64,000 bases of DNA from an uncultured Alphaproteobacteria bacterium (lineage in GTDB: Bacteria; Pseudomonadota; Alphaproteobacteria; Methylaequorales; Methylaequoraceae): positions 20,785 to 84,784 of the forward strand of contig CACODD010000002.1 of the NCBI GenBank assembly GCA_902625895.1. The letters are read 5' to 3'. The notes below the pieces were generated by a model. It searched no databases. It was not told the origin of the DNA and was given only the letters and a program-made list of their open reading frames with translations. Both the position numbers and the translations under genes were made by a program. Shown piece after piece: positions 4,793-64,000 of this stretch (the first letter of the stretch is position 1; each line of letters begins with the position of its first letter).

Positions 4793-5258
4793 TTTCCCAG
4801 TTTCCGTTTTTATCTCTACATGCTGAAGAATTCTCTTCAAATATTTCATTATTTTTTTTAATAATCTTTTTAAAATCTCTACAATCTCTATTTTTCATTT
4901 TATAATTATTAAGTGGGATTACTTCACCAGTAATGTTCTGATTCTCATTACTTTGCCATTGTTCACTTGCATTATCGGGAGTAAAGTTAAGAGAATTTTC
5001 AATCACGTTATTAAATTCTACTCTTTCTTTTTTACTTAAAACCTCTACAATTTTACCACCTAAGATATATCCAGCTGCACCACCTAAAATAACAGAAATA
5101 TCTTTTGTAGCTCCAGAACCGACCTTAGAACCAAGATAACCTCCTACTGCTGCGCCAATAATTTGACCAAATACCTTTTTATCACTTGTATTTTCACATG
5201 AAACAATCAATAAAATTAAAGAAAATATTAAAATTTTAGTTCCGTTCATCTTATACAT
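4785..5258 (-). CDS. Lipoprotein with a glycine-zipper (Gly-zipper_2TM/17 kDa-antigen-like) domain
   Basis: Lipobox-like LLIVSC near the N-terminus. A GxxxGxxxG-rich segment follows (IIGAAVGGYLGSKVGSGA...ILGGAAGYILGG). Confidence 0.5.
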   Translation of the reverse strand: MYKMNGTKILIFSLILLIVSCENTSDKKVFGQIIGAAVGGYLGSKVGSGATKDISVILGGAAGYILGGKIVEVLSKKERVEFNNVIENSLNFTPDNASEQWQSNENQNITGEVIPLNNYKMKNRDCRDFKKIIKKNNEIFEENSSACRDKNGNWEII

Positions 5259-5277
5259 CTAATAATTATCTAACAAA

Positions 5278-23465: not shown

Positions 23466-24238
23466 TGTTTGAAATAAAATTTGATAATCTTATTTTAAAG
23501 TCTAATAAAAACAAAATCATTAATAATAATATTATTTTTCTTTTTTACGGGATAGGTTGTTGTTCAGATGATTTTAAATTTTTATTCAATACACTAGGTC
23601 CTAGATTTAATCTCTATATTGTAGAACTTCCAGGGCACAACGGTATTAAATATTCTGATAGTGATTTGTATTCATTCTCAAGAAAGATTTATCTTTTTTT
23701 AAAAAAAAAAAACATTAAGGAAATTACATTTTTTGCTCACTCTTTGGGTGGTATAATCCCAATAATTTTAGTAAAAAACTTTATAAAAAACAAAATACTA
23801 ATTAGTAACTTTATAAACTATGAGGGAAACTTGACTAAATATGATACAGAGACTTTAACAAAAAAAACTATTTCTTACAGGAAAAATGATTTTATAAGAA
23901 ACAAATTTAACAATTTATTAAAAAAAACTGAATCGTCTCAAAATAGGTTTTTAAGTTATTGGTCTCAATCATTAAAAAAAACTTCACCTTCTATTTTTTA
24001 TGATTTATCAAAGCAATGTGTTAAATTAAGCGAATCGAATGAACTATTAAATTTTTTTAAAACGTTTTTTAAAAAAAAAGTTTATATTTATGGTGAGAAG
24101 ACTCAATTAAAGGTTTCAAAATATATTTTTGGTCCAGTCCGATACAAAATAAAAAATTCTGGTCATTTCTCTTTTTTTGAAAGTAAATTAGATTTTAGTA
24201 GAATATTTAGAAAATTATTATTAAAAAAATATAAATGA
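23462..24238 (+). CDS. Alpha/beta-hydrolase fold protein
   Basis: Nucleophile elbow FFAHSLGG. HGxxG-like oxyanion region. C-terminal GHF. Confidence 0.5.
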
Positions 24239-25956
24239 ATAAAATTAAAAAACAACATCTTCCCAGTCGACATGTTTCTGTGGGTCCTAAAAGCTCGCCT
24301 CATAGATCTTATTATTATGCAATGGGAATGACTGAGAAAGAAATATATCAACCTTTTGTTGGTATTGCGACATGTTGGAATGAATCTGCACCATGTAATA
24401 TTTCTCTTTCTCGTCAAGCTCAATCAGCAAAGAAAGGTGTCAAAGATAATACCGGAACTCCCAGAGAGTTTACTACAATTACAGTTACTGATGGAATAGC
24501 GATGGGGCATGAAGGAATGAAATCATCATTGGTATCGAGAGAAATTATAGCAGATTCAATTGAGGTTTCTATGAGAGGACATTGTTATGATGGATTGGTT
24601 GGAATTGCAGGGTGTGATAAATCTTTACCTGGCATAATGATGGCGATGTTGAGGTTAAATGTTCCTGCTGTATTTTTATACGGTGGTTCGATTCTTCCGG
24701 GTAAACACAAAAACAAAGAGGTTACTGTCCAGGATGTGTTTGAAGCAGTTGGTGAATTTGATTCAAATAAGATCACCGAGGATGAGCTTTGTGATTTAGA
24801 AAAAGTTGCATGCCCATCAGCAGGTTCTTGCGGAGGGCAATTTACTGCAAACACAATGGCCTGTGTTGCTGAAGCAATTGGATTAGCATTGCCTGGTTCT
24901 TCTTCAACACCAGCTCCGTACGAGTCCAGAGATAAATTTGCATATGACTCTGGAATCAAGGTAATGGATCTTATCAATACGCAACTCAAACCTAGGGATA
25001 TTGTAAATAAAAAATCTCTGATCAATGCTGCAAGAATCGTTGCGTGTTCTGGTGGTTCAACAAATGCAGCTTTACATCTACCCGCATTAGCTAATGAAAT
25101 AGGAATAGACTTTGATATAATGGATGTTGCAAAAATTTTCAAAGAAACTCCATATATAGCTGACTTGAAACCTGGAGGAAAATATCTTGCAAAAGATCTT
25201 CATGATATTGGAGGAGTTCCAATTATAATGAAATCTTTATTGGATGGAGGTTTTCTAGATGGTTCGTGTCTAACAGTAACAGGTAAGACTTTAAAAGAAA
25301 ATTTAAGTTCTGTAAAGGTTGACTTTGGCTCTCAAAAAATCATTTTTTCTACTAAGAATCCTATCTCTAAAACCGGTGGAGTTGTCGGTTTGCAGGGAAA
25401 CCTAGCGCCTGATGGTGCAATTGTTAAGGTTGCAGGGTTAAAATCTCAAAAATTTGTTGGAAAAGCTAGATGTTTTGATTGTGAAGAGAGTGCTTTTGAT
25501 GCTGTAAGTAACAAACAGTATGAAGCTGGTGATGTAATAGTTATAAGGTATGAAGGACCAAAAGGGGGCCCAGGTATGAGAGAAATGCTTGCTACAACTG
25601 CCGCAATATATGGACAAGGGATGGGAGAAAAAGTTGCCTTAATTACAGATGGAAGATTTTCCGGCGCAACAAGAGGTTTATGTGTTGGTCATATAAGCCC
25701 GGAAGCTATGGCATTAGGTCCAATTGCTCTTATCAAGAATGGGGATCAAATATTAATTGATGCTAAAGAGGGAATAATAACTCTAAAGGTTGATGAAAAG
25801 ATATTAGAAGCCAGAAAAAAATCAATTCAAAAAAGAAAAAATAATTTTGGATCGGGTGCTTTATGGAAATTTTCTCAAACAGTCGGATCTGCAAGATTTG
25901 GCGCAGTAACTCATCCCGGTGCAAAAAAAGAAATAAAGAATTATTCAGACATCTAA
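24235..25956 (+). CDS. ilvD: Dihydroxy-acid dehydratase
   Basis: CDKSLPG and SGGSTNA motifs. Fe-S cysteines. 573 aa. Confidence 0.95.
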
Positions 25957-26724
25957 ATTGATCCATATTGGAATATGATCTGAGGGTTTCGTCAATCCCC
26001 TGTATTTTGAACCAAAATTAATATTTTTTACCAACTTTAAGTACTTTGGAGAAATTAGAAAATGATCAATTAATAATCCATCATTTCTTTCCCAACAAGC
26101 TCTTTGATAGTCCCAATACGAAAATGACGAACCTGGTTTTTTGAAAATTCTTACAATATTCGTCAGACCTGATGAAAGAATTTCTCTAAAGATTGTTCGA
26201 GACTCAATACACCCGAGAGCGTCATTTTCCCAATTATCAAAATTTAATACATCATTTTTATTTTCTAATACATTAAAGTCTCCACCAATGAGAAGATTAT
26301 CTACATTATTAATAAAATGTTTCGAAATTTTTTTAATTTCTGATAACCATGAAATTTTAAAGTCGAATTTTTTCTTGTCTTCGATTGGGTTTCCGTTTGG
26401 TGTGTAAACATTTAAGATGTTTAAATTATATTCGTTTACATATATGAAATTTGTTCTTGATTCGCATAATAAAACCTCGTTCTCTAGTTCTATAGACTTG
26501 AAATTTAATCCTTTTTTTAATAATGTCGCAACGCCGTACTTTCCTTTTTGTCCATTAACAATTAATTCATAACCAAATGAGGAGTAGAAATCTGGAAATT
26601 CTTCATTTGTACACTTGATTTCTTGAAGCAAAATTATGTCTGGGTTTATCTCTTCGATAAATTTTTTGAGAATATCAACTCTTATTCTAACGGAATTTAT
26701 ATTCCAAGAGGCAATTATAGCCAT
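25945..26724 (-). CDS. xth: Exodeoxyribonuclease III
   Basis: [15 protein letters not shown]...LLQEIK. C-terminal DH catalytic region. 259 aa. Confidence 0.9.
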
Positions 26725-35099: not shown

Positions 35100-35730
35100 A
35101 ATTAAAAAAAAAATTAATTTAATTTTAGAACTTCAAAACCATGGTATTGATAACGCGGATGTTTTAAAAGTTATGGAGGAAGTTGATAGGCAAATCTTTG
35201 TAGAAGAAAGTCTAAGACAAAAAGCTTTTGATAATATAGCTCTTCCTATAGGTTGTGGACAAACTATATCTCAACCGCTTGTTGTCGCGTTAATGACACA
35301 ATTTTTAGATATAAAAAAAAATATGAGAGTATTAGAGATTGGAACTGGAAGTGGCTATCAAACTTATATTCTCTCCAAATTAGCAAGATTTGTTTACACT
35401 GTGGAAAGACATAAATTCTTGTCCATCAATGCATATAATCTTTTTAAAAAACTTATGGTTACAAATATTTTTTGTAAGCATGATGATGGTGGCCTTGGGT
35501 GGAAGGATCAAGCACCTTTCGACAGAATAATAGTTACAGCTAGTGCTCCTGAGATTCCTGGAAAGTTAATCGAGCAATTATCAATCAACGGTAAAATGAT
35601 TATTCCAATTGGAGACCAACACAATGATCAAATTTTAAAGAGTATTTCAAAAAATAACGAAAGACTCATAATTACTGATATTGGTTCAGTAAGATTTGTC
35701 CCACTATTAGAAGGAAAAGAGAATAAATGA
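35083..35730 (+). CDS. pcm: Protein-L-isoaspartate O-methyltransferase
   Basis: Signature LPIGCGQTISQP. SAM motif VLEIGTGSGYQT. Confidence 0.85.
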   Translation: MIKKSEIKKKINLILELQNHGIDNADVLKVMEEVDRQIFVEESLRQKAFDNIALPIGCGQTISQPLVVALMTQFLDIKKNMRVLEIGTGSGYQTYILSKLARFVYTVERHKFLSINAYNLFKKLMVTNIFCKHDDGGLGWKDQAPFDRIIVTASAPEIPGKLIEQLSINGKMIIPIGDQHNDQILKSISKNNERLIITDIGSVRFVPLLEGKENK

Positions 35731-37798: not shown

Positions 37799-39373
37799 AT
37801 GCTAAAAATTAATAAATGGAACGTTTTTTTTGTTTTGGCAGTTTGCGTGACAGCAATATATTATATAATTCCAAATATTTATGGAAAAAGTGAGGTTACT
37901 GCACTTCCAAAATTCCTTTCACAGAAGCAAGTTAATTTAGGACTTGATCTTCAGGGTGGATCTCACTTACTTCTTGAAGTTGACACCAAATCAGTTTTAA
38001 AAGAAAAATCTGAAGATTTAGTTGACGATATTAGAAAGTCTTTGAGGAAATCAAAAATTAAATACTCTAATCTTGGTTCGAAAATAACAGGAGCAGTGGT
38101 TACAATTACTGATCCAGAAAAAATTACTTTAGCCAAAAACAGCATCAAAGAAAATATTGAAAAGGGTATTTTAATTGAAGAATCCAAAAATAAATTAAAC
38201 CTATTTTTTTCTGATCAATATATCATTGATACTAGATCTAATACAGTGGAACAATCTATTGAAGTTGTAAGGAAAAGAGTTGATGAATCTGGAACAAAAG
38301 AGCCCTCTATCCAAAGACAAGGAGAAGAAAGAATTGTTGTTCAGCTTCCAGGAATCAAAAATCCGGAGAGAGTTAAAGCTTTGATAGGTAGAACTGCAAA
38401 ACTGAATTTTCATATGCTAGATCCAACCACAGTAGAGCTTGCCGAACAAAGAGGAAAACTTCCACCTGGAACTTTTAAAGCCCTAAATTCTGATCCAACC
38501 GCTTATGAGAAACAGTTTGTTGTTAAAAAAAGAGTACTACTAACTGGGGAAAGGCTCAAAAATGCTGCTGCAACTGTTGACGCGCAAACTGGAAGGTATG
38601 TGGTTGCTTTTGAGTTTGATAAGAAGGGTGCAAAGAAATTTGCCAAAGTTACTACCGATAATACTTATCAAAGATTAGCAATTCTTCTTGATAATAAAGT
38701 AATAAGTGCTCCTCAGATAAGAGAACCAATTACTGGAGGTCAGGGAAATATTAGTGGTAATTTTTCACCTGAAGCTGCCAACGATTTAGCAGTTCTTTTA
38801 AGAGCTGGATCTCTCCCAGCTCCTATCAAGGTATTAGAGGAAAGAACAGTAGGTCCTAGTCTTGGCATTGATTCTATAGAAGCAGGTAAAAAAGCATTAG
38901 TAATTGGTTTTATTTTAGTAATAGTATTTATGATCATAAGATATAAAGCTTTTGGAATTGTTGCTGATTTTGCCATAATTTTCAATATCATTTTGTTGAT
39001 TTCGATGTTAAGCGCGATAGAAGCTACCTTAACGATGCCAGGGATAGCTGGCATAGTTCTAACGGTCGGTATGGCAGTCGACGCAAATGTTTTGGTATTT
39101 GAGAGAATAAAAGAGGAAATAAGGTCTGGAAGATCAATATTGAACTCCATTGATTTAGGTTATAAATTTGCAATAAAAACAATTTTAGATGCAAATTTTA
39201 CAACTCTCATTGCAGCACTATTGTTATATAACTATGGATCAGGACCGATAAAAGGTTTCGCAGTAACTTTGAGTATCGGTATCTTAACATCAATGTTTAC
39301 AGCGTTAATATTAACTAAACTAATAGTAACTTTTTGGGTCCTCAAGCTAAAACCGAAAAGATTGTACATCTAA
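37799..39373 (+). CDS. secD: Protein translocase subunit SecD
   Basis: LGLDLQGGSHLLLEV motif. C-terminal 6-transmembrane bundle. Confidence 0.9.
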   Translation: MLKINKWNVFFVLAVCVTAIYYIIPNIYGKSEVTALPKFLSQKQVNLGLDLQGGSHLLLEVDTKSVLKEKSEDLVDDIRKSLRKSKIKYSNLGSKITGAVVTITDPEKITLAKNSIKENIEKGILIEESKNKLNLFFSDQYIIDTRSNTVEQSIEVVRKRVDESGTKEPSIQRQGEERIVVQLPGIKNPERVKALIGRTAKLNFHMLDPTTVELAEQRGKLPPGTFKALNSDPTAYEKQFVVKKRVLLTGERLKNAAATVDAQTGRYVVAFEFDKKGAKKFAKVTTDNTYQRLAILLDNKVISAPQIREPITGGQGNISGNFSPEAANDLAVLLRAGSLPAPIKVLEERTVGPSLGIDSIEAGKKALVIGFILVIVFMIIRYKAFGIVADFAIIFNIILLISMLSAIEATLTMPGIAGIVLTVGMAVDANVLVFERIKEEIRSGRSILNSIDLGYKFAIKTILDANFTTLIAALLLYNYGSGPIKGFAVTLSIGILTSMFTALILTKLIVTFWVLKLKPKRLYI

Positions 39374-39378
39374 AGACC

Positions 39379-40260
39379 ATGAAATTTAATATTAATTTTT
39401 TCAAATACAGATTTGTCGCTTTTTTATTGTCCATATCATTGATGGGACTGTCAGCCTTCCTATTTCTGACCAAAAACTTAAATCTTGGTATTGATTTTAA
39501 AGGTGGAATCATGGTCGAAGCTAAATTTTCTCAAGCCCCTAACCTTGCTATATTGAGAGACAAAATAGACAAATTACAAATTGGAAACTCTGAAATACAG
39601 GAATTTGGTGATTCTAACACAATTTTATTCAGATTAGAAAAAATTGATGACAGTAACATGACCCAAGAGCAAATTATTCAAAAATTAAAAAATGAATTAG
39701 ATAGTGATACTGATTACAGAAGAGTTGAATTCGTTGGACCTAAAGTTGGTAAAGAGCTTAAATCAATTGCAATAAAAGCGGTATTATTCTCTTTAATTGC
39801 AATGTTCATTTATATTTGGTTTAGATTTTCTGGTTGGCAATTTGGTCTTGGTGCTTTAGTAGCTCTGTTTCACGATGTTCTTTCAACTATGGGTTTTTTT
39901 TCTTTAACACAAATAGAGTTCAATTTGGCTTCGATTGCTGCTATTTTAACTATTGCAGGTTATTCAATTAACGATACAGTTGTTGTATTTGACAGAATAA
40001 GGGAAAATTTAGTTAAAACAGACAGAGAGTTAGAGGAATTGCTAAATCAATCTATTAATCAGACTTTGTCAAGAACGTTAATGACTTCAATTACTACACT
40101 TCTAGCTTTATTGGCATTATTTGTTTTTGGAGGAGAAGTAGTAAAAGGTTTTGTTTCTGCAATGATGTGGGGAGTTTTAATTGGCACGTACTCGTCTATA
40201 TTTATTGCCTCTCCATTAATTTTATTTTTTGGTTTTAAAAAAGTCGAAGAAAAATCATAA
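39379..40260 (+). CDS. secF: Protein translocase subunit SecF
   Basis: …GIDFKGG… motif and 6 transmembrane helices. I chose the ATG at 39379 (MKFNINFF), which lies after the secD stop, rather than the extended upstream frame given in the ORF track. Confidence 0.9.
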   Translation: MKFNINFFKYRFVAFLLSISLMGLSAFLFLTKNLNLGIDFKGGIMVEAKFSQAPNLAILRDKIDKLQIGNSEIQEFGDSNTILFRLEKIDDSNMTQEQIIQKLKNELDSDTDYRRVEFVGPKVGKELKSIAIKAVLFSLIAMFIYIWFRFSGWQFGLGALVALFHDVLSTMGFFSLTQIEFNLASIAAILTIAGYSINDTVVVFDRIRENLVKTDRELEELLNQSINQTLSRTLMTSITTLLALLALFVFGGEVVKGFVSAMMWGVLIGTYSSIFIASPLILFFGFKKVEEKS

Positions 40261-55100: not shown

Positions 55101-55510
55101 GTATTCCAAAAAATTACATTAAAGATTTGGATATGAGATTGAGCTTTTATAGAAAAATATCGAATATAGTTAATATTGACGAATTAGAGAATATGCTATC
55201 CAACTTGAATGATAGGTTCGGAAACATTCCTAACTCTTTCAAGAATTTATTTCATATAATTGAGATTAAATTAAAAGCTAAAAAGATGAATATAAAAAAA
55301 ATTGAGAATACCAATAAAGGTTTTGTACTGGAATTTAAAGATGATAATATGATGAATGTTGAAAAACTTATAAAATTAGTTGAAAAAAATGCTGAAATTT
55401 TAAAATTGATGCCAGGTTCAAAGTTATTTTTTAAGAATGTTAAAATTAAAGATGAAGAGAAAGTAATGAGTTTAAAAAATCTTTTACAAATACTCTCTAA
55501 ACAAATATGA
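52142..55510 (+). CDS. mfd: Transcription-repair coupling factor
   Basis: CGDVGFGKTE and DEEQSFGV helicase motifs. TRG/C-terminal domain. 1122 aa. Confidence 0.9.
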   Translation: MNKILNKYALDKSSLEFFLAAQSTKYNKIAYFSSIEYDFDEIKNKLLKINPKLNVIEFPSFDCFFFSNLSPTNKNKSDRINCLHNIVFSDFSENIIISSIKAIATNTINIETVKKSQLVIRKRSSLTYDQILNFLVEGGYERVDFVHNKGEFAIRGEIMDIFSPIHKQPLRILFDFEKIDKLNLFSTQDQLSISTVNDYYLSLSSEFQFNSENIACFRSLFRQLKLKDKDDYYKSLSQKIVLPGTEQFFPILNNNFNSFLEYLDGYKILLDSNFEKDFKQVTSDLFDNIDEYKDLKKINCNYFYNLKELNSKIENRFHTLSFNQLNSKEEGINYFSSRYNFHKNKILNQKKLITLIKKREIIIFCYSSNVNKKKILSFLNSKNINYIDKFKQDFFDLTRINFNFLVYKFTINNSFVLNFNNTHSLYFISDEEIYGKTSKKYISKSIKEENLIDDYSNLKIGDYIVHNDHGIGKYNGLISRTFNNVVQEFLELLYHGNDKLLIPVENLDQISKYGQSEIKVSLDKLGIQSWQQRRAIVKNRIKDIAENLLKTAAKRKLEKGDVLIPKSFEYEKFSSEFEFTETSDQLKSIQQIENDLASGSPMDRLICGDVGFGKTEIAMRASFVSVSAGFQVALICPKLLLVNQHIKNFKKRFKNFDYVIKKISRIESDTEKKNLKEEIGNGNIDILIGTHAILSSELVFKKLGLIIIDEEQSFGVEQKEILKKFKPNCHILTLTATPIPRTLQSSIFQLKNISLIKTPPLSRLNIKTYLMLKEKKQLKKIIQKEINRDGQIFYVAPRISDLNNIQKNLNNLIPNEKIEVIHGRLSNKNIEESYNRFFLKKSKILVSTAMIESGLDISNVNTIIIEKPQLFGLSQLYQLRGRVGRSSRQAYAYLLLDDFKNISENSIQKLKIISKIQNLGAGLSIASSDLELRGGGNIVGSEQSGHIKEVGIELYYKMLKETIDELKNIKTIDRDWSPVIKLGFAISIPKNYIKDLDMRLSFYRKISNIVNIDELENMLSNLNDRFGNIPNSFKNLFHIIEIKLKAKKMNIKKIENTNKGFVLEFKDDNMMNVEKLIKLVEKNAEILKLMPGSKLFFKNVKIKDEEKVMSLKNLLQILSKQI

Positions 55511-56688
55511 ATACTTCTAAGAAACAGATTAATTTTAATTTGAACGATTTTCTTCCTTTTATTGACGGTTTGGATATTGCAATAAACTTTTCTTTAGTTA
55601 TTTTTTTTTCTTCTTTTCTTTTAGAGTCATTAGATACAAGAATAGGTGTTGTTATCTTATGTTTTGTTACTTCATTATCTTTTATTTCCAGAATATTTGA
55701 CTTAAAAATTTCAAAGTTATTAGAAAAATTAAAAATCAATAAAATAAATCTATTTTTAATTTTATGCTTTCTTTACTTTATACCTGTTATAATTCAAAAG
55801 GAATTTCCAATTTTATTATCAATTGGAATTTTCGGAATTTTTCGGGTTTTCACAGGTATTATAATTTCATTAAGTTATAGAAATGTTTTAATAAACGAAC
55901 AAAAATTTGGTACGGATGTTTTACAGTTGAAATATTGGATATTAATTTTTCTAGGTATTGCCTGCGGTTCACTATTTTATAATTTAATGAATGAAATTTA
56001 TTCAAATGATTTCATAAATAATGGTGGTTGGAAAATACTTTATGTAATAGTTATAACCTTACTTTTAGTAATATTTGTTTTTTCCAAATTTTATTTTAAA
56101 AAGAATCTAATTATAATTCTAGATTCCAATAATATAAAAAATAATTCTTTTGTTACTAACTATATAAACAGTTTTATTTTATTTATACCTATCTTATGTT
56201 TTTTACTTTTTTCTTTTTCTAATTGGCTGCCAAAATTCAGTAACCCCGATAATTTATACTTTTTAAGTTATGGATTTTTATATTTATTTCTAACTAACTT
56301 AATTTTGTTTTTTATAAAACCGCTTGCTAATATTGTAGGTAGAAGAAAATCTGTAATATTCTTCAATTTATCGGTTCTAATAATTTCCTCAATTTGCTCA
56401 TTTGTAGATCACTCATCAAGTTATAGTATCGATTTTCTTAAATTTTTTTTATCTTTGGTGTCAAGTTTCACAATTTGTTGCTTTATCCTTCAACAGCAAA
56501 TAAACAGAACAACAGAAAATTTATGTATTTCAAGTTTAAATCTTTCTTTTCTTACTACAGCTATATTTGTTTCGCCGTTTGTTTTTTTTGCAGTTAATTT
56601 TTCAATAAATTATTCTGCTATTTACATATTTTTATCAATAGTTTATTTTATAAATTATATAAGGTTCGTTATAAAAAAAGATGGATAA
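55507..56688 (+). CDS. Polytopic membrane protein, function unknown (possibly a transporter)
   Basis: About 10-12 hydrophobic segments. No recognisable signature. Confidence 0.35.
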
Positions 56689-57001
56689 AATTTCAGCCTC
56701 ACACATTTTGATAATGCATAAAGATTCTAAAGATTCTAGATCAAGTTTATCTAAAGAAGAAGCTATGAAACTTATCAAGAAAATACATAATGAACTGACT
56801 AGTGAGAAATCTTCTTTCAAAGATCTTGCTAGTAAACATTCTGAATGCTCCTCGTCTGCATATGGAGGAAGTTTAGGAGAATTTGGCAAAGGAATGATGG
56901 TTAAGCCCTTTGAGGAAAGTGCCTTTTCTCTAAAAGTTGGTGAAATTTGTGAACCGATTGAAACTGAGTTTGGTTTTCATATAATTAAAAGAGACGAATA
57001 A
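56681..57001 (+). CDS. ppiC: Parvulin-type peptidyl-prolyl isomerase (PpiC)
   Basis: SASHILI... followed by [21 protein letters not shown]...GFHIIKR. Confidence 0.75.
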
Positions 57002-57431: not shown

Positions 57432-57686
57432 ATGAAAAATAGACTTTCAAAATCTATTCAAAGATTAAAAAAAGAGAAAAAACTTTCTGATAAAGAGAAA
57501 TCTGATTCAAAAGTTTTAACAGCGTATAATGTAAAAATATTTAGAAATTTGTCCGAGAAATATGACTTATCATTAACATTAAATAATGAAAAAACTAATA
57601 GAGAAAATGATAAGGAACAAAATTTAAGTTTGGGTGCACAGATGACTCTAGAAAGAATAAAAAAAGGTGAGAATTTTAAGTTATAA
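57432..57686 (+). CDS. Small hypothetical Lys/Glu-rich protein
   Basis: ORF only. Confidence 0.25.
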   Translation: MKNRLSKSIQRLKKEKKLSDKEKSDSKVLTAYNVKIFRNLSEKYDLSLTLNNEKTNRENDKEQNLSLGAQMTLERIKKGENFKL

Positions 57687-58149
57687 AATTCTCTTTTTAG
57701 TTATTTTTGGATTTACCGAGCTGCGATCAAACGAGTTCGCACTCATTCATTCAAAAAATTTTTCTAATTTGTTAGTAAAAATAGCCGTTGATGATAATAC
57801 AAAGCAAAAAGGTCTTATGAATATGAAACAGTTAAAAACTCATAATGGGATGCTTTTTATTTACGATGCACCGCAAATAGTCAAGTTCTGGATGTACAAT
57901 ACTTTTATTCCGTTAGATATAATATTTATTGACGATAGAAATATTATCAGTTCTATTAAAGAGGGTGTTCCAATGAAAAAAAATTTAATTTCATCTGAAA
58001 TTAAAATTTCCGCTGTATTAGAAATACCAAGAGGTTGTGCAAAAAAATTAAAAGTTAAGAAAGGTCAAATTGTTTCTTGGATAATAAAAAATTCGGCTGA
58101 AATTAAAAATATAAGATATTTTCATTGTTTAAATTCAAAAGCAAAATAG
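57667..58149 (+). CDS. DUF192-family secreted protein
   Basis: Signal-like N-terminus. MLFIYDAPQIVKFWMYNTFIPLDIIFID matches the DUF192/COG1430 core. Confidence 0.5.
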   Translation: MRILSYKILFLVIFGFTELRSNEFALIHSKNFSNLLVKIAVDDNTKQKGLMNMKQLKTHNGMLFIYDAPQIVKFWMYNTFIPLDIIFIDDRNIISSIKEGVPMKKNLISSEIKISAVLEIPRGCAKKLKVKKGQIVSWIIKNSAEIKNIRYFHCLNSKAK

Positions 58150-58169: not shown

Positions 58170-58787
58170 TTGGGAAAATTTATTGAAAAATATAAATTAG
58201 AAAATCCTAGCTTTAGCTTTGAATTAAATGAACTAATTCAAAAAATTAAGTCTGAGAATAATCAAGAAACAGAAGATTTGTTTTCTACAATTAACTCGCT
58301 AAGAGAAAAATTAGACCAATCCATTTTTGAAAAAAATAATGCAGTGCAAAAAGCTATTTCATTAAAGAATGATGAAATAAACCAATTAAAATCTTCTGTG
58401 CAAGAACTTAGAAATCAAATGGAGAAGCTAAGGTTTGAAAAAAGAGAAGCAATTCAAATTCAAATTCAGTCTTCAGCTAATGAAATAAAACAACTTAAGT
58501 TATCTTGCTCTGCATTAAGAGAAGAGCTTGAAAATTTAAAGTTCGAAAAACAAGAGGCAGTTCAAAATGCGATAAAGAAATCTTCACTTGAAATTAACGA
58601 ATTAAAAGATGCAACATCTGCGTTAAGAGACGAATTAGTTGAATCAAAGTTTTCAAAAAAACAAGCAATTCAAAAAGCGGTTTTAAATTCCAGTGATGAA
58701 ATTAAACAACTTAAAAATTCAACACAATCACTAAGAGACGAATTAGAAAAAGTAATAAAAAATTATGAAAAAAAAATCCAAAAATAA
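58170..58787 (+). CDS. Coiled-coil protein with four tandem ~36-aa repeats
   Basis: Repeats of AxQxAI...EIxQLK.S.Q.LR.ELE.LKFEK.E. Heptad hydrophobic periodicity. Confidence 0.5.
   Translation: MGKFIEKYKLENPSFSFELNELIQKIKSENNQETEDLFSTINSLREKLDQSIFEKNNAVQKAISLKNDEINQLKSSVQELRNQMEKLRFEKREAIQIQIQSSANEIKQLKLSCSALREELENLKFEKQEAVQNAIKKSSLEINELKDATSALRDELVESKFSKKQAIQKAVLNSSDEIKQLKNSTQSLRDELEKVIKNYEKKIQK
58341..58780. repeat. Intragenic tandem repeat array, 4 x ~108 nt, encoding the coiled-coil repeats
   Basis: Protein-level repeats with recurring EIKQLK / LRDELE / KFEK blocks are visible in the translation of 58170-58787. Confidence 0.5.
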
Positions 58788-58798
58788 TAAGTTAAAAT

Positions 58799-61105
58799 AT
58801 GAAAAATGATAATGAAAAAATAGTTCAAACCCTGGAGAAGCTACGAAGAACTGAACTTTTACTTCAGATTTCAAGAAAAATTGCTGGACTTAAATCTTTA
58901 GAGGAGATTTTATGGACACTAATAGAATTCGTCACTAATGAGTTAGATGCAGATAGAGGAACATTATTTTTAAATGACAACGAAACAAATGAACTTTATT
59001 CAAGAGTTGCCCAAGGAGACTTGACTCGCGAAATAAGAATTTTAAACAACGTGGGAATAGCAGGTGCAATTTTTCAAAACAAGTCAGGGGAAGTCATTCA
59101 TGACGTTTATGCCGATTCCCGTTTTAACAAAGAAGTTGATCAAGAAACAGGTTATAAGACAAAAAATATGATTTGTTGTCCAGTTAAAACTGTTGACGGA
59201 TCGACAATAGGCGTTATTCAAGTTTTAAATAAAAGAAAGGGAAGATTTACAAAAGATAATCTTTTCTTTGCAGAATCAATTGCTACCCAAGCCGCTGTAT
59301 CAATTCAAAATGCTCAAAATACAGAACATTTTGAAAAAAAAAGAGCCAAAGAAATGGAGTTTATTAGTATTGTTTCTGATGTTACAGCTGAAATCGATTT
59401 AGGAGCTTTACTTCAAAGAGTGATGGAGGAGGCAACACGAATGCTAAATGCTGACAGGGCCACATTATTTTTAAATGATGAAAAAACCAATGAATTATTT
59501 TCAAGGGTTGCTATGGGGGAAGGCATTGGTGAGATAAGACTTCCTAATACTGCAGGAATTGCAGGATCTGTTTTTACTTCTGGTAAATCAATGAATATTC
59601 CTTATGCCTACGCTGATTTAAGATTTAATCCTTCATTTGATAAACAGACAGGGTATTTTACTCGTTCGATTTTATGTGTACCAGTTGTTAATAAAGAAGG
59701 TAAGGTAATTGGTTGTACACAAGTTTTAAATAAGAGTGGTGGCAAATTTACAGATGAAGATGAATCTAGATTAAAGGCATTTACTCAACAAGTTGCAATT
59801 GCTCTTGAAAATGCCAAGCTTTTTGAAGATGTTTCAAAATCTAGAAAGTATAATGAAAGCATGCTTTCTAGTATGTCTAACGGAGTTATAACAATTAACA
59901 GTGAAGAAGAAATTGTTACTTGTAACAAATCTGGTTTAAAAATACTGCGAACTAAAGATTCAGATATAATAAAAAAACAATCCAAAGTTTTTTTTTCCGG
60001 AAATAAAAAATGGATATATGAGAAAATTAAGAGTGTTGGTGAATCAAAAGAACCAGAAATTATTGTTGATGCAGAAATAGAGGTTTACGACAATGAAACA
60101 GAAAAAGAAGAAAAAATATCAGTAAATTTGACAATACTCCCACTGATAAATGAAGATAGTGATGGTAGAACAGATCAATCAGACAATTTTCTGGGTACTT
60201 TATTGATGTTTGAGGATATTTCTTCAGAAAAAAGAATGAAATCAACAATGTCTAGATACATGGATCCTGGAATAGCAGATCAATTATTAGAGGATGGATC
60301 AGACATCATGGGAGGCTTAGAAACAACGGCAACTTTGTTGTTTTCTGATTTAAGAAGTTTTACAACCATTACAGAGTCGTTGGGTGCCCAGGGCACTGTA
60401 AAATTATTGAATGAATATTTTGAAATAATGGTTGAATGCATATCAGAGCAGGGAGGTATGTTAGATAAATTTATTGGAGATGCAATAATGGCTGCATTTG
60501 GTCTTCCTATATCACATGAGGATGATGAAGATAGGGGTGTTAAAGCTGGTATCAATATGATCAAAAGATTATGGGAGTGGAACAAGCAAAGGGAAAAAGA
60601 CGGAAAGCCACCTGTGGATATGGGATTAGGATTAAATACTGACAAAATTGTGGCAGGAAATATTGGATCACAAAAAAGAATGGATTATACGATGATAGGT
60701 GACGGTGTGAATTTAGCAGCGCGTTTAGAAAGTGCATGCAAACAATATAGTGCAAGGATATTAATTAGTGACTATACTTTCAAAAAACTAAAAGGTACTT
60801 ATCGCATTAGGTATATAGATGATGTAGTTGTTAAAGGAAAAAAAGAACCTATAGGTGTTCATGAGGTTTTAGATTATCACAATGATAAAACTTTTCCGAA
60901 TTTAATGGATGTTGTCAATCATTTTAATGAAGGAAGAAAACATTATAAAAGTGGAAGTTTTGAGCAAGCTATTTCATCTTTTAACGAATGTCTAAAATCA
61001 AATTCTCAAGATAACTTATCAAAAACATACATTGAGAGGTGTAATTTATTAATAGAGGAAAAACCAACTGACTGGAATGGTGTTTGGGTGATGAAAAGCA
61101 AATGA
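58799..61105 (+). CDS. Signalling protein: tandem GAF domains, a PAS-like linker, a class III nucleotidyl (adenylate-type) cyclase domain and a TPR-like C-terminus
   Basis: Two GAF-like blocks (…DRGTLFLNDNETNELYSRVA…, …DRATLFLNDEKTNELFSRVA…). Cyclase motifs ATLLFSDLRSFTTITE, KFIGDAIMAAFG and GDGVNLAARLES. Lys in KFIG and Asp in MDYTMIGD occupy the purine-specifying positions (adenylate-like). Confidence 0.8.
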   Translation: MKNDNEKIVQTLEKLRRTELLLQISRKIAGLKSLEEILWTLIEFVTNELDADRGTLFLNDNETNELYSRVAQGDLTREIRILNNVGIAGAIFQNKSGEVIHDVYADSRFNKEVDQETGYKTKNMICCPVKTVDGSTIGVIQVLNKRKGRFTKDNLFFAESIATQAAVSIQNAQNTEHFEKKRAKEMEFISIVSDVTAEIDLGALLQRVMEEATRMLNADRATLFLNDEKTNELFSRVAMGEGIGEIRLPNTAGIAGSVFTSGKSMNIPYAYADLRFNPSFDKQTGYFTRSILCVPVVNKEGKVIGCTQVLNKSGGKFTDEDESRLKAFTQQVAIALENAKLFEDVSKSRKYNESMLSSMSNGVITINSEEEIVTCNKSGLKILRTKDSDIIKKQSKVFFSGNKKWIYEKIKSVGESKEPEIIVDAEIEVYDNETEKEEKISVNLTILPLINEDSDGRTDQSDNFLGTLLMFEDISSEKRMKSTMSRYMDPGIADQLLEDGSDIMGGLETTATLLFSDLRSFTTITESLGAQGTVKLLNEYFEIMVECISEQGGMLDKFIGDAIMAAFGLPISHEDDEDRGVKAGINMIKRLWEWNKQREKDGKPPVDMGLGLNTDKIVAGNIGSQKRMDYTMIGDGVNLAARLESACKQYSARILISDYTFKKLKGTYRIRYIDDVVVKGKKEPIGVHEVLDYHNDKTFPNLMDVVNHFNEGRKHYKSGSFEQAISSFNECLKSNSQDNLSKTYIERCNLLIEEKPTDWNGVWVMKSK

Positions 61106-61824
61106 GGAATTTTCCACTGGGCAAAGGTTTACCGAGTTTAGATTATATAGTTAAGAATTGGCCAAAAACAAAATGTATTTTAAAAAAATATATTTTATCA
61201 AATCATAAACAACCAGATTTATACTCGATAGCTTTAATTTGTTTAAAAGAGTTAAAAGTTTTTAAGTTAAAAGACTATAAATCAATTATTAGAAAATTAT
61301 CAAAATTATGTTTAAGGAATACATGTTTCAATACATACCATGATTCACATCACTTTAAGTCAGTTTTGGTAATTTCATGCATATTAGGAAAACAAATAAA
61401 TTTAAAATACAAAGATAGGCTTTTATTGGTTATAATAGCTCTTACTCACGATATGAATCATCAGGGTAGAAGAATACTTATGAGCAAGCCCTACTATCAG
61501 GAATTAAAGAGTTATGCCGGATTAGAAAAAATTTTATTCAAAAAAATCTTTGTTTTTAAAGAATTAAAGAGGATTAAGAGAATATTTGAGAGCACCTTTT
61601 TCCCTATTAAACCAGAAAATGTAGAAGACGATCTTGAAAAAATAATTTTAGATGCTGATATATTATCATCCCTAATGTTTGGTCCTCAAGTTGGAGTGAA
61701 ACTCGCTAGCAGATTGAAACAAGAGATTAGGTATAATGATGATTCAGAACTACTTTTTTCAAATTTTCTTAAACTTTTAGGGGGAAAATGTTTATACCTA
61801 GATTATTCAAAAAAATCATGTTAA
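61102..61824 (+). CDS. HD-domain 3',5'-cyclic-nucleotide phosphodiesterase-like protein (class I/eukaryotic-type PDE motif)
   Basis: YHDSHHFKSV matches PDE4 YHNSLHAADV. THDMNHQGRR matches HDVDHPGVSN. The ATG at 61102 overlaps the cyclase TGA stop (ATGA). An upstream TTG at 61084 is the alternative start. Confidence 0.5.
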   Translation: MRNFPLGKGLPSLDYIVKNWPKTKCILKKYILSNHKQPDLYSIALICLKELKVFKLKDYKSIIRKLSKLCLRNTCFNTYHDSHHFKSVLVISCILGKQINLKYKDRLLLVIIALTHDMNHQGRRILMSKPYYQELKSYAGLEKILFKKIFVFKELKRIKRIFESTFFPIKPENVEDDLEKIILDADILSSLMFGPQVGVKLASRLKQEIRYNDDSELLFSNFLKLLGGKCLYLDYSKKSC

Positions 61825-61869: not shown

Positions 61870-63210
61870 ATGAAATTGTGGATAAGTAGTAATATGGGAA
61901 AATTTGTAATAGGGTGTTTTATTTTTTTGATTGGTGTTGGATCATTTGTATCCGCGCAAGAAGAAAAAGATGAATTTATACCATATAATCTAAAAGCCGC
62001 ACTTAAGTCAGTTTTGAATAATCATAAGACCATATTGGCAACAAAAAGTGATATAGAGGCTGCTAAGTTGAGACTAAAACAATCCAAGGGTGGTTATTTT
62101 CCTTCGTTAGACGTTACAGCCAATTACGGACATGAAAATATTATAAAATATGGACCAGGAAATAACACACAATTGATGGGAAGGGACGCAACAGCAAAAA
62201 TAACTCAAACAATTACAGATTTTGGTTTGACAAAATCAACAGTAGAAACTTCAAGATTATCCTTAAAACAAACACGAGCAACTGAAACACAAATTAAAAA
62301 TGACATCTTATTAAGAGCAATTTCAGCGTACTTGAGAATTATACAATCAAGGGAAAGTGTTCGGTACGCAAGACAATCAGTTGCAAATATAAAAAAACAA
62401 ACTGAATTGGAAGATGCAGCAGTAACTGCGGGAGGTGGACTTACTTCGGATGTTCTCCAAGCAAAAACTCAATTAGCTGGTGCTCAGGCACGTTTAATTC
62501 AGTTTGAAGGTGTATTAGCCACATCTAGACATGAATTTGAATACGTTTTTAATTCATTTCCAGATAATTTAAATTCTTTGGTACTCCTCAAATCTGTTTT
62601 TGATAGATTACCTAATTCTCAAGAAGAAGCAGAGGAAATAACAATGAAAAATAATCCCTCACTGATTGCAGCAAGAATTACAGAAGATATTGGTAAAGAG
62701 GCAATAAATACAGCAAAATCCTCTCTTTTTCCAACAGTAAAAGGCATAGTAAGTCACTCAGAAAAACAAGATTTTGGTGGTGTTGTAGGATTCAAAAGAG
62801 AAACCTCTGCTAAATTAGATTTTGCATATCCATTAAATTTAAGCCTTTCAGAATATGCAGGAAAAGATGCAGCGGTTGAGTCCTATTTAGCTACATCTAC
62901 AAGAATAAGAGATCAAGAAGATATGATTAAACAAATGTTAAGAACTACATGGGACGGATTGAAAACAGCTCAACAAAATGCTCAATTTCTTACAAATCAG
63001 GCAAGAATTTCTGGTGAATTTTTAGAGCTTGCAAGACAAGAAAGACAAGCAGGAAACCGTACTCTACTTGATGTTTTAGGAGGTGAAACTGCTTTGATTA
63101 ACGCTCAAGCAGATGCAATTGCAGCCAAGATTGAGGTTCTCATAAATAGTTACACTCTATTGAGTTTAATGGGAGGACTTTCAATTGAATCAATTGAATT
63201 TGTTGAATAA
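61870..63210 (+). CDS. TolC-family outer membrane channel (second copy), likely type I secretion component
   Basis: Signal peptide (FIFLIGVGSFVSAQEE). 446 aa. Tandem halves with TolC-like coiled-coil segments (…LTSDVLQAKTQLAGAQARL…, …LLDVLGGETALINAQADAIAAK…). Confidence 0.7.
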   Translation: MKLWISSNMGKFVIGCFIFLIGVGSFVSAQEEKDEFIPYNLKAALKSVLNNHKTILATKSDIEAAKLRLKQSKGGYFPSLDVTANYGHENIIKYGPGNNTQLMGRDATAKITQTITDFGLTKSTVETSRLSLKQTRATETQIKNDILLRAISAYLRIIQSRESVRYARQSVANIKKQTELEDAAVTAGGGLTSDVLQAKTQLAGAQARLIQFEGVLATSRHEFEYVFNSFPDNLNSLVLLKSVFDRLPNSQEEAEEITMKNNPSLIAARITEDIGKEAINTAKSSLFPTVKGIVSHSEKQDFGGVVGFKRETSAKLDFAYPLNLSLSEYAGKDAAVESYLATSTRIRDQEDMIKQMLRTTWDGLKTAQQNAQFLTNQARISGEFLELARQERQAGNRTLLDVLGGETALINAQADAIAAKIEVLINSYTLLSLMGGLSIESIEFVE

Positions 63211-63266
63211 ATAAGGTCTTTTTAACTTTTAAAATATTAGTGTTTCGCCTATAGTTAAAACTGTAT

Positions 63267-64000
63267 ATGAAAGGAAATAGTCACCAAATAAATTTAAACG
63301 ACAGTGGTTCTTTAACTAAGATCTACGCTGGCAGCACCATTGACATTAATGGATTACCAAGTTGGTTACCAAAGGCAAATTTTTCAAAAACGCAAACAGA
63401 CCTCCTAATAACTTCACCTGCTGGCGATGAAATATTATTAGTAGATTTTTTTACAAACTTTGAACTTCCTTCACTCAAAACTGAAAACGGTTTATTACTT
63501 AAAGGCACTTTAATTGATACTTTATCTGGATCATTCACACCTGGACAGTACGCACAAGCCAATAATGCAAACTCACTTTCTATCGGAGAAGTTTCTAGTG
63601 TCACAGGAGAGGCTAAAGCAACTCGTTTGGACGGAACAACTGTAAATCTCTCAACTGGAGACCCAGTTTTTCAGGGTGATACTGTCGAAACTACTGGGGC
63701 AGGAGCGATTGGATTAGTATTTCTTGATAAAACAACTCTCTCATTATCGGAGGGAGGAAAAATGGTTTTAGATGAACTTGTATATGACCCGGCAACTGGA
63801 ACTGGAAGTATGGCCGTTGACATGGTTGAGGGAGCTTTCAGTTTTGTGAGTGGCGAGATTGCTAAAACTGGGCCAGATGCAATGAAAGTTTCAACACCGG
63901 TTGCAACTATTGGGATAAGAGGAACTACGGTTGCAGGTAAAGCTGCAGTTGAAGGCAATGAAAACTCCTTTACACTTCTACAAGACGCTGATGGAGGCGT
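63267..64000 (+). CDS. 5' end of an open-ended gene (partial, continues past the window). Candidate type-I-secreted large protein.
   Basis: The frame is open from the ATG at 63267 to the window end (244 codons, no stop). It is absent from the ORF track because it is unterminated. There is no signal peptide. The sequence is Gly/Thr/Ala-rich and contains GDPVFQGDTVETTGAGAIGLVFLDKTTLSLSEGGKMVLDELVYDPATGTG. Whether that block is diagnostic of the N-terminal retention modules of giant T1SS adhesins is from memory and unchecked; only ~244 aa are visible. Confidence 0.5.
   Translation, partial: MKGNSHQINLNDSGSLTKIYAGSTIDINGLPSWLPKANFSKTQTDLLITSPAGDEILLVDFFTNFELPSLKTENGLLLKGTLIDTLSGSFTPGQYAQANNANSLSIGEVSSVTGEAKATRLDGTTVNLSTGDPVFQGDTVETTGAGAIGLVFLDKTTLSLSEGGKMVLDELVYDPATGTGSMAVDMVEGAFSFVSGEIAKTGPDAMKVSTPVATIGIRGTTVAGKAAVEGNENSFTLLQDADGG

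Follow-up and report, generated by a model that had tools for sequence, protein, structure and literature searches.

Class I cyclic-nucleotide phosphodiesterases (PDEs; PF00233), among them PDE1-11, the trypanosomatid PDEs, and the choanoflagellate RhoPDE, carry the motifs Y-H-[ND]-x-x-H and H-D-x-x-H-x-G. Their C-terminal helices hold an invariant, purine-recognising glutamine and a hydrophobic clamp, as in the structures of PDE4 and PDE5. Class I has been described from animal, fungal, and protist enzymes, and the characterised bacterial cAMP phosphodiesterases belong to class III (CpdA/Rv0805 type) or class II (PMC4222275, PMC13087886). The class III enzymes CpdA, Icc, and Rv0805 and the class II enzymes Rv1339 and PdeE fill the role that we predict below for a 240-aa protein, i.e., removal of bacterial cAMP, but with folds (calcineurin-like metallophosphoesterase and metallo-beta-lactamase) unrelated to that of the 240-aa protein. 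Some bacterial cAMP PDEs are encoded beside cyclase genes, e.g., spdA at the cyaD1 locus; since SpdA hydrolyses 2',3'-cNMP, such adjacency is no guarantee of 3',5'-cAMP specificity (PMC4222275). No characterised bacterial class I-type PDE was found in the literature searched, although its absence is not thereby proven, and a search on cAMP signalling in SAR11 gave no report of a bacterial class I PDE.

On the side of synthesis, Anabaena CyaB1 and CyaB2 carry a tandem of GAF domains ahead of a class III cyclase domain, and in CyaB1 a PAS domain lies between the two. Both cyclases are activated by cAMP via their GAF domains (PMC4411481) and have been termed a 'self-activating cAMP switch' (Kanacher et al. 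2002, as cited in PMC4411481). A single genetic unit found in Marchantia and other streptophytes, CAPE (COMBINED AC with PDE), holds both a class III adenylyl cyclase and a PDE of class I type, and cAMP synthesis and breakdown are thereby co-expressed (PMC5159850, PMC8115329). The locus described here has a comparable arrangement; however, in CAPE both activities reside in one eukaryotic polypeptide, 1,610 aa long, whose N-terminal PDE domain is of full size (PMC5159850, PMC8115329), whereas this locus consists of two bacterial genes in the order cyclase-then-PDE, with a minimal PDE-like part.

The locus lies in a 64,000-nt stretch of DNA from an uncultured alphaproteobacterium (hereafter, the window) and has the following features:

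57667..58149, + strand: DUF192 (COG1430) protein (Pfam DUF192, 3.5e-26), conserved upstream neighbour of the cluster
58170..58787, + strand: repetitive coiled-coil protein, 205 aa, separated by 11 nt from the cyclase gene
58799..61105, + strand: class III adenylyl cyclase, cytoplasmic, 768 aa, CyaB1/CyaB2 type
58871..59338, + strand: GAF-A of the cyclase (aa ~25-180)
59390..59818, + strand: GAF-B (aa ~198-340), predicted cNMP-binding regulatory site
59855..60169, + strand: PAS-like domain (aa ~353-457), weak, below Pfam cutoffs
60326..60850, + strand: class III catalytic domain, from alignments to solved cyclases
61102..61105, + strand: ATGA stop/start overlap of the cyclase and the 240-aa ORF
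61102..61824, + strand: compact class I-PDE-like HD-superfamily phosphohydrolase, 240 aa
61870..63210, + strand: TolC-family outer-membrane channel (OEP 1e-52, TIGR01844 1e-54)
63267..64000, + strand: open-ended gene (5' part) encoding a large secreted protein, from its translation

The two central ORFs were confirmed at 58799-61105 and 61102-61824, where an earlier note on this DNA had placed them, as was the overlap of the cyclase's TGA stop with the ATG of the 240-aa ORF (GCAAATGAGG, 61102-61105). The TolC-like channel and the open-ended gene that it had described downstream are also present. The DUF192 gene occurs in 27/27 loci, and tolC lies directly 3' of the 240-aa ORF in all lineages examined whose locus extends beyond that gene. 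Orthologues of the 63267 ORF, 969-981 aa in length, have HemolysinCabind domains and a weak FecR domain, and an ABC transporter gene comes next after them; the product is a probable type I secretion substrate. The 205-aa protein gave only weak coiled-coil-type matches in Pfam, together with internal self-matches, and its gene co-occurs with the cyclase, both being present or both absent; it is missing in loci L026, L027, and L041. A promoter/terminator scan was uninformative, since counts were not above those in shuffled sequence. A crude regular expression found no CRP-type cNMP-binding motif within the window, and no cNMP effector was seen there.

Domains and residues of the cyclase

Pfam bore out the two GAF domains (1.4e-38) and the class III cyclase domain (Guanylate_cyc at aa 510-684, 3.7e-23) that the earlier note had proposed. 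Two further parts, absent from that note, are a TPR-like C-terminus and a PAS-like region (PAS_9 2.8e-5, PAS 1.3e-3), the latter also carried as precomputed PAS matches by orthologues; the domain order is thus GAF-A, GAF-B, PAS, catalytic domain, TPR-like tail. The GAF tandem matched that of Anabaena CyaB2 best among PDB entries (1ykd, 1.3e-45), followed by the GAF domains of PDE5, PDE2A, and PDE10A. The NKFDE motif, a marker of cNMP-binding GAFs (PMC4411481), is complete in GAF-B (N311, K312, F317, D321, and E322; 59729-59764) and invariant in 23/23 orthologues, GAF-B being the most conserved domain of the cyclase (mean identity 96%). In GAF-A the motif is incomplete (N144, K145, and F150, then N154-L155). 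GAF-B would therefore be the site at which cAMP binds, and the idea of feedback through the GAF domains, raised in the earlier note, gains support from the 1ykd match and the invariant GAF-B motif.

The residue set of class III adenylyl cyclases (Asp pair, Lys plus Asp/Thr, Asn plus Arg) is complete. The catalytic, metal-binding Asp pair, which the earlier note had expected on alignment, is intact (D517, 60347-60349; D561, 60479-60481), the substrate-specifying residues are K557 and T631, and the transition-state residues are N638 and R642; all six are invariant in the 23 orthologues. Of the Lys/Asp specificity pair previously proposed, the Lys stands and the second residue is Thr631, and the resulting Lys/Thr pair, which is also that of the adenylyl cyclase CyaB, predicts ATP as the substrate, like the pair first proposed. 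The catalytic domain matched IlaC/Cya2 (3e-38) and Pseudomonas aeruginosa CyaB (3e-32) in the PDB. The 23 intact orthologues share 73-99% identity and have dN/dS values of 0.02-0.03, indicating strong purifying selection. In a homologue search for distant contexts, the matches listed were dominated by orthologues of at least 83% identity; metagenomic clusters for the cyclase alone number more than 7,400. In addition to the tandem-GAF architecture, the protein shares with CyaB1/CyaB2 the GAF-B NKFDE motif and the Lys/Thr pair, but differs from them in being alphaproteobacterial rather than cyanobacterial, in its incomplete GAF-A motif, in its TPR-like tail, and in having a PDE-like gene 3' of it.

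Class I-like features of the 240-aa protein

The 240-aa ORF has homologues in 132 clusters and occurs in 27 species-level genomes, with dN/dS of about 0.06-0.08, i.e., strong purifying selection. A chance ORF or pseudogene was ruled out by this conservation and a dN/dS of about 0.07. An alternative TTG start at 61084, from which some homologues are annotated at 246 aa, was set aside because distant homologues begin at the 61102 ATG.

Both of the HD motifs reported in the earlier note were found, YHDSHHFKSV at 61336-61365 (Y79-H80-D-S-H-H84) and THDMNHQGRR at 61444-61473 (H116-D117-x-x-H120-x-G), although the first is no HD motif but the class I motif Y-H-N-x-x-H with Asp for Asn. Their spacing equals that in class I PDEs. 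Further key residues are E134, T165, D186 (LDADI, 61648-61662), and E208, and H80, H84, H116, D117, and D186 are invariant in 52 diverse sequences. A signature of [YF]-H-[NDHS]-x2-H-x(28-40)-HD is present in 35/36 clade members and in 47/52 sequences of the wider family. The spacing H80-x3-H84-x32-D117 agrees with the class I motif H-x3-H-x(25-35)-[DE] (quoted in PMC4222275).

These residues must be weighed against the leading alternative, which is that the 240-aa protein is an HD-superfamily phosphohydrolase acting on a substrate unrelated to the cyclase (e.g., a nucleotide or phosphorylated metabolite), its position beside the cyclase reflecting frozen gene order and tight packing in a streamlined genome, and its true partner, if any, being the TolC/type I secretion locus always found 3' of it. 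The invariant H84, H116-D117, and D186 also make up the general HD-superfamily pattern H...HD...D, a metal core that the protein has in common with generic HD and HD-GYP proteins (PF01966; YpgQ, 2pq7, PA4781, and Bd1817), and many homologous clusters bear a precomputed PF01966 annotation. The protein itself falls below the Pfam cutoffs for both families, scoring 13.2 bits (E 0.074) with PDEase_I, against a gathering threshold of 24.8, and 16.6 with HD, against 22. Across the clade, the generic HD model matched more members than PDEase_I, i.e., 30/36, weakly (best 3.6e-6), vs. 23/36 (best E 1e-4). The PROSITE class I signature PS00126, which we take to be H-D-[LIVMFY]-x-H-x-[AG]-x(2)-[NQ]-x-[LIVMFY], was found in full, in that form, in 0/36 clade members and 1/52 wider-family sequences; its core, HD-[LIVMFY]-x-H-x-[AG], is present in 36/36, and the mismatch falls at [NQ], which is I125 in the 240-aa protein. 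A single-sequence phmmer search of PDB sequences and a search of NCBIfam returned no match.

Profile comparisons pointed elsewhere than to a generic HD protein, since of all the solved HD families they detected class I cNMP PDEs only. In the PDB, a profile of the clade (A1) matched class I PDEs and nothing else (7d7p best, at 6.7e-5, then PDE5, PDE9, and PDE10), in alignments that begin ~45 residues ahead of the first His motif, and a wider profile (A2) matched PDE8A at 4e-12, all the matches listed being class I PDEs. In the A2 register, T165 falls on the PDE 'LATD', D186 on 'AADIS', and E208 on 'LMEEF'; E134 aligns with 'LENHH', T165 with 'TD', and E208 with 'KEF' of solved PDEs. The T, D, and E positions are thus in register, as are the metal-binding His/His-Asp/Asp and the general-acid His with the PDE motifs YHN..H, HD..H, and AD. 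That general-acid His, H80, is typical of class I PDEs, and its invariance likewise argues against an unrelated HD hydrolase. Like class I PDEs, the protein has a helical N-terminal subdomain of ~75-80 residues ahead of the first His, and its fold appears class I-like in a predicted model (pLDDT 80). A profile of the C-terminal half (A3) found no class I PDE in the PDB, its best match being a generic HD protein (E 0.05), so that the sequence of this later part does not independently confirm the class I assignment and, if like anything, resembles a generic HD protein. An HD-GYP c-di-GMP phosphodiesterase was ruled out by the lack of a GYP motif and a low Z.

The protein also differs from known class I PDEs in size. 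Its 240 aa are ~90 residues under the ~320-330 of class I catalytic domains, the deficit comprising ~50 residues in the stretch from the HD motif to the final metal-binding Asp and ~40 at the C-terminus, and in class I PDEs both of these regions form the substrate and inhibitor pocket. No conserved Gln matching the purine-specifying glutamine was found in the last helices of the clade or of the 52-sequence wider family, and therefore the substrate is not readable from sequence; F222, which hardly varies, is a candidate for the clamp Phe. Unlike its described counterparts, moreover, this putative PDE is bacterial and stand-alone.

The earlier note held the class I fold to be overwhelmingly eukaryotic. 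This view did not survive, considering that 188 or more clusters at 50% identity make up the wider family and that those of its members whose neighbourhoods were inspected sit among bacterial genes. The few named members are called 'hypothetical' or 'HD domain-containing'. Remote bacterial relatives pass the PDEase_I threshold (25.6-37.0 bits vs. 24.8), match class I PDE structures at 1.5e-14 over ~200 positions, and are homologous to the 240-aa clade (hhalign 99.8%, E 9e-28, 179 columns). Thus, the class I identity that the note expected an HMM search to reveal was missed by the Pfam and PROSITE tests of the protein itself but recovered by profiles and through its relatives. The deeper sequence tests place the protein nearest to class I PDEs, and its clade appears to be an uncharacterised bacterial family of class I-like PDEs.

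Pairing of the two genes and alternative functions

The cyclase lies directly upstream of the 240-aa gene in 25/27 genomes, the identical ATGA junction is found in 23 related loci, and the pairing with this cAMP-type cyclase is retained in a lineage of 46% identity, a persistence that speaks against mere packing of unrelated genes. However, overlaps are routine in the window, where 19/41 same-strand pairs overlap, 5 of them by ATGA (including mfd with an unrelated membrane protein), and the junction is therefore weak evidence of a functional pair. Furthermore, three lineages keep DUF192, the 240-aa gene, and tolC without a cyclase between them, and the closest outgroups of the clade adjoin STAS/PP2C/RsbW partner-switching genes rather than cyclases. 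The synthesis/degradation pair of the earlier note thus draws support from conserved adjacency but little from the overlap, which is real. The cyclase and the 240-aa protein may be functionally or physically coupled, and a 'pulse generator' is a reasonable hypothesis. Taken with the Pfam HD counts, the C-terminal half, and the missing glutamine, these exceptions give some weight to a cyclase-unrelated HD phosphohydrolase, which we nevertheless regard as rather unlikely.

Distinctly less probable is a PDE for another cyclic nucleotide (cGMP, 2',3'-cNMP, or a cyclic dinucleotide) that is not the cognate degrader of the cyclase product. Sequence is a poor guide to PDE specificity, the protein lacks the specificity glutamine, and SpdA provides a precedent (PMC4222275); against this, the neighbouring cyclase has the adenylyl-type Lys/Thr pair, and the 240-aa protein has no GYP motif and resembles class I PDEs far more closely than it does HD-GYP, PgpH, or V-cGAP. 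A Pycsar-like anti-phage system, composed of a cyclic-pyrimidine cyclase and an accessory gene, is scarcely credible and was ruled out as generic cyclase homology alone, since the match of the cyclase domain to PADLOC PycC models (2.6e-26) is expected of PycC, itself a class III cyclase, and although the 240-aa protein has phage relatives (phrog_16069 at 5e-8, and jumbo-phage HD proteins), no PADLOC model matches it, a TM or TIR effector is absent with no effector model matching, the sensor domains are CyaB-type, and the two genes belong to the conserved, syntenic core and are subject to very strong purifying selection.

A putative cAMP switch and its implications

On balance, we think that the locus probably encodes a cytoplasmic cAMP module, in which a CyaB-type cyclase is combined with a compact class I-like PDE that converts cAMP to 5'-AMP and so resets the switch. 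The 768-aa cyclase, built like Anabaena CyaB1/CyaB2 (GAF-GAF-PAS-cyclase), would make cAMP, which, by analogy with those enzymes, would probably activate it through GAF-B in positive feedback. The 240-aa protein, made from the same transcript, would be related to the class I PDE catalytic domain, as a compact and divergent bacterial form that keeps both the general-acid histidine H80 and the two-metal site (H84, H116, D117, and D186, with E134 and T165). Its most likely reaction would be hydrolysis of 3',5'-cAMP, the presumed substrate, to 5'-AMP, and this breakdown would reset the switch and limit the height and duration of the signal. Speculatively, the output may involve the adjacent TolC/type I secretion locus.

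A bolder reading, which we offer tentatively as plausible but short of probable, is that the 240-aa protein represents an unrecognised prokaryotic branch of class I PDEs whose minimal core truly hydrolyses cAMP. Together with the CyaB-type cyclase it would form a complete one-operon, 'eukaryote-style' toolkit (cNMP-binding GAF, class III cyclase, and class I PDE), a switch that both activates and resets itself, and in sister clades the enzyme would be under RsbV/RsbW-type partner-switching control, as a neighbour or fusion. If this is true, partner-switching modules would gain a new class of output, and the family could be a sign that the catalytic domain of eukaryotic PDEs has bacterial ancestors. 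The link of the sister clades to partner-switching kinases is a second lead that can be tested independently. If the activity is confirmed, the 240-aa protein would give bacterial cAMP signalling a degradative arm that is now missing and provide a minimal scaffold for studies of class I PDE catalysis and evolution, and it would suggest that cAMP signalling is regulated in a very abundant, uncultured lineage of marine alphaproteobacteria.

Organization and conservation of the locus

Every feature that an earlier note on this stretch had described was located where it had been placed, including a 768-aa cyclase and the 240-aa protein encoded immediately after it (hereafter, the product of the small gene). 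The genes of the locus are arranged as follows:

57667-58149, + strand, DUF192 gene
58170-58787, + strand, 205-aa coiled-coil protein, repetitive, ending 11 nt before the cyclase
58799-61105, + strand, 768-aa cyclase
61102-61824, + strand, 240-aa ORF (small gene)
61870-63210, + strand, TolC
from 63267, + strand, open-ended ORF

The cyclase's stop and the small gene's start share an ATGA (61102-61105). The window's GC content is low (about 25-36%) and its coding density is about 90%, with overlaps in 19 of the 41 same-strand neighbouring gene pairs (e.g., 55507-55510, 8828-8831, 24235-24238, and 35727-35730). Five of these 41 pairs, including mfd and the membrane-protein gene that follows it, have 4-nt overlaps of the ATGA type, and five same-strand pairs overlap by 1 nt. 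Since the genome is strongly compacted, gene overlaps say little about function, and the ATGA overlap would indicate co-transcription at most. GC content rises locally to 0.33-0.36 at 24001-26000, 38001-40000, and 62001-64000 versus a background of about 0.25-0.30, and the last of these blocks overlies tolC and the giant-protein gene. A 106-aa ORF (56681-57001), which shares 8 nt with the end of the membrane-protein gene before it, resembles, by eye, a parvulin-type peptidyl-prolyl isomerase (...GGSLGEF...FGFHIIK).

The small gene was present in 27 species-level genomes, all from uncultured marine Alphaproteobacteria (single-cell genomes and MAGs deposited as Alphaproteobacteria, 'Rickettsiales' or Pelagibacteraceae). 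Conservation of the gene pair, which the earlier note had proposed checking, was largely borne out: the order DUF192, coiled-coil, cyclase, small gene, TolC was kept in 25 of the 27, the ATGA junction was identical in 23, and a 46%-identical lineage retains the cyclase, 2 nt ahead of the small gene. For the small gene, dN/dS at unsaturated dS was 0.06-0.08, and the cyclase had values of 0.02-0.03; both are under strong purifying selection. However, three lineages (L026, L027, and the P0114 group) lack the cyclase and coiled-coil genes at the locus while keeping DUF192, the small gene, TolC, the FecR/HemolysinCabind giant protein, and the ABC transporter. The coiled-coil protein itself occurs in all 25 cyclase-bearing loci and in none of these three lineages, so that its gene and that of the cyclase seem to come and go together; one possibility is that it serves as a scaffold for the cyclase.

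Downstream of the small gene there are in every case TolC, a giant protein of at least about 970 aa bearing FecR-like and HemolysinCabind (RTX) domains, and an ABC transporter, which together form a type I secretion locus (window 61870-64000; related loci L041 5812-10699 and L027 6808-11135). This locus is the constant neighbour, and the small gene's linkage to it is broader than that to the cyclase.

More distant relatives have other partners. In the closest outgroup (E 1.5e-24) the PDE-like gene lies in an operon with STAS, GAF-PP2C, and HATPase_c_2 genes, and other relatives carry an RsbW-like HATPase_c_2 domain as a fusion. Taken together, the closest outgroups (L030 926-4063, L031 140-3277, and also L029 303-1509; proteins P0152, P0205, P0231, and P0263) either sit in partner-switching operons in which STAS, GAF-SpoIIE/PP2C, and HATPase_c_2 precede the PDE-like gene, or have such a fusion. 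Inspection of the surroundings of further relatives revealed no cNMP-related neighbours; one relative has a weak cNMP_binding/ferredoxin gene nearby. Because outgroups and relatives adjoin partner-switching or non-cNMP genes, the pairing with the cyclase is specific to the window's clade.

Relationship of the 240-aa protein to class I phosphodiesterases

From its HD motifs, the small gene's product had been likened to class I phosphodiesterases (PDEs). In a Pfam scan it fell below both relevant cutoffs (HD, E 0.01, 16.6 bits, cutoff 22; PDEase_I, E 0.074, 13.2 bits, cutoff 24.8), and it had no match in NCBIfam or in a single-sequence phmmer search of the PDB. Several members of its wider family, however, do pass the PDEase_I gathering score (P0193, 36.2 bits; P0205, 37.0; P0188, 27.8; P0175, 26.1). 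We collected 132 homologous clusters, almost all marine and nearly all without a name, the few named ones being 'hypothetical protein'; an exhaustive profile search of 1.8 billion representatives returned 188 clusters at E <= 1e-3.

An alignment of 36 close relatives showed H83, H84, H116, D117, H120, E134, and D186 to be invariant. Against the PDB, its profile matched class I PDEs only (RhoPDE 7d7p, 6.7e-5, then PDE5, PDE9, and PDE10), which was a fair competition because the PDB includes many other HD families. These alignments start about 45 residues ahead of the first His motif and cover helices that generic HD proteins lack. In a wider, 52-sequence alignment, H80, H84, H116, D117, and D186 were invariant and the consensus, N-x-Y-H-N-x-x-H-x-x-x-V ... 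A-A-L-x-H-D-L-x-H-x-G-R, resembled the class I signature; its profile matched PDE8A at 4e-12, with class I PDEs throughout among the matches listed. The class I motif, H-x3-H-x(25-35)-[DE] (PMC4222275), is present as H80-x3-H84-x32-D117. The link between the window's clade and class I PDEs is transitive, running through relatives at or near the PDEase_I threshold: hhalign joined the two groups with 99.8% probability (E 9e-28, 179 columns), and those relatives, searched on their own, matched structures of class I PDEs (1.5e-14, about 200 positions aligned). In the combined, transitive alignments, E134, T165, D186, and E208 fall on the PDE 'LENHH', 'TD', 'AD', and 'KEF' motifs. We regard it as highly probable that the 240-aa protein is a divergent enzyme of the class I-type PDE fold.

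It is not a canonical member, since it scores below the Pfam cutoff and lacks the full PROSITE class I signature, which was found in none of the 36 clade members. The protein is about 90 residues shorter than eukaryotic class I catalytic domains, the missing parts presumably being, in PDE4D numbering, a stretch of about 50 residues that would separate the HD motif from the last metal-binding Asp, plus about 40 residues of the C-terminus. In eukaryotic PDEs, these regions build the nucleotide/inhibitor pocket. Neither alignment contained a conserved glutamine matching the purine-recognising Gln, F222 was the sole nearly invariant residue of the last helices in both, and the region beyond the HD motif, used alone as a profile, detected no PDE in the PDB. 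Weighing the profile, motif, and residue evidence against these departures, homology and shared catalytic machinery with class I PDEs are well supported, whereas the sequence does not tell which substrate is used.

The phage 'phosphohydrolase' family phrog_16069 matched the 240-aa protein at E 5e-8, better than any Pfam model, and the predicted model of the protein is similar to jumbo-phage HD proteins about 210-250 aa long (PaBG, Dickeya JA29, and Goslar).

The cyclase and its GAF domains

With Pfam, the cyclase matched GAF twice (1.4e-38) and the class III cyclase domain once (3.7e-23), along with a PAS below threshold and a TPR-like tail, and the catalytic domain aligned with solved cyclases (Cya2-derived IlaC, 3e-38; P. 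aeruginosa CyaB, 3e-32). Among 23 intact orthologues, the catalytic metal-binding pair D517 and D561, the substrate lysine K557, T631, and the transition-state residues N638 and R642 were invariant. Since K557 and T631 are invariant, the specificity pair is Lys/Thr rather than the Lys/Asp previously read. P. aeruginosa CyaB aligns with the same residue at the second position ('DYT-IG'), and we take the Lys/Thr pair still to predict ATP as substrate, as in class IIIb cyclases. In four related assemblies (L001, L016, L021, and L023; region ~3700-6000), frameshifts interrupt the cyclase ORF; these are probably assembly errors rather than pseudogenes, since at least two (LRMED MAGs) are long-read by name and one contig is labelled 'pilon'.

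The GAF tandem best matched the cAMP-binding tandem of Anabaena CyaB2 (1ykd, 1.3e-45), followed by the cNMP-binding GAFs of PDE5, PDE2A, PDE10A, and PDE6. GAF-B is the most conserved part of the cyclase (mean 96% identity) and its NKFDE signature is invariant; GAF-A lacks the final Asp-Glu. NKFDE is conserved in most characterised cNMP-binding GAF domains, and CyaB2 activity rises when cAMP binds its GAFs (PMC4411481, which cites Kanacher et al., 2002, under the words 'a self-activating cAMP switch'). Given this likeness, signature, and precedent, the cyclase is a new member of an already known kind, the CyaB type, and feedback by its product through GAF-B is a well-grounded inference by analogy.

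Possible function of the gene pair

A CyaB-type adenylyl cyclase and a class I-like, metal-dependent phosphohydrolase thus lie intact, back to back, and conserved. The cyclase would make cAMP and be stimulated by it at GAF-B, and the small enzyme would convert cAMP to 5'-AMP using a metal site of H84, H116, D117, and D186 with H80 as general acid. Co-expression would fix the ratio of synthesis to degradation, so that a positive-feedback switch could reset. We lean, by a little, toward cAMP being the physiological substrate and the two proteins working together. The functional pairing is less secure than first assumed, in view of the common ATGA overlaps, the three cyclase-less lineages, and the partner-switching operons of outgroups, and it is possible, if less probable, that the 240-aa protein is an HD hydrolase of unrelated substrate beside the cyclase through frozen synteny only. 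That it is a PDE for another cyclic nucleotide seems unlikely; a cautionary precedent is SpdA, whose gene also adjoins a cyclase and which proved 2',3'-specific (PMC4222275). A Pycsar-like defence system is very improbable, as the match of the cyclase catalytic domain (60326-60850) to the PADLOC PycC model (2.6e-26) reflects generic class III homology, although it could lead automated annotation to label this conserved, housekeeping-like locus wrongly as a defence system. For the cAMP module that we favour, control of the neighbouring secretion locus is speculation.

In the literature searched, no bacterial cNMP PDE of class I type was described, and classes I and II are said to have a 'more restricted presence' in bacteria than class III (PMC13087886, 2026). 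Among published systems, the closest in uniting a class III cyclase and a class I PDE is CAPE (PMC5159850), which differs in being a eukaryotic fusion. The finding is based on in-silico inference throughout; for cNMP specialists it is surprising and easy to test. The bacterial family of the small protein is uncharacterised and is best regarded as a minimal version of the class I PDE domain. Phage PDE-like copies could matter for cyclic-nucleotide-based defence. In the outgroups, the PDE-like enzyme sits in the slot usual for the regulated output of a partner-switching module, and it may represent a new output class for such modules.
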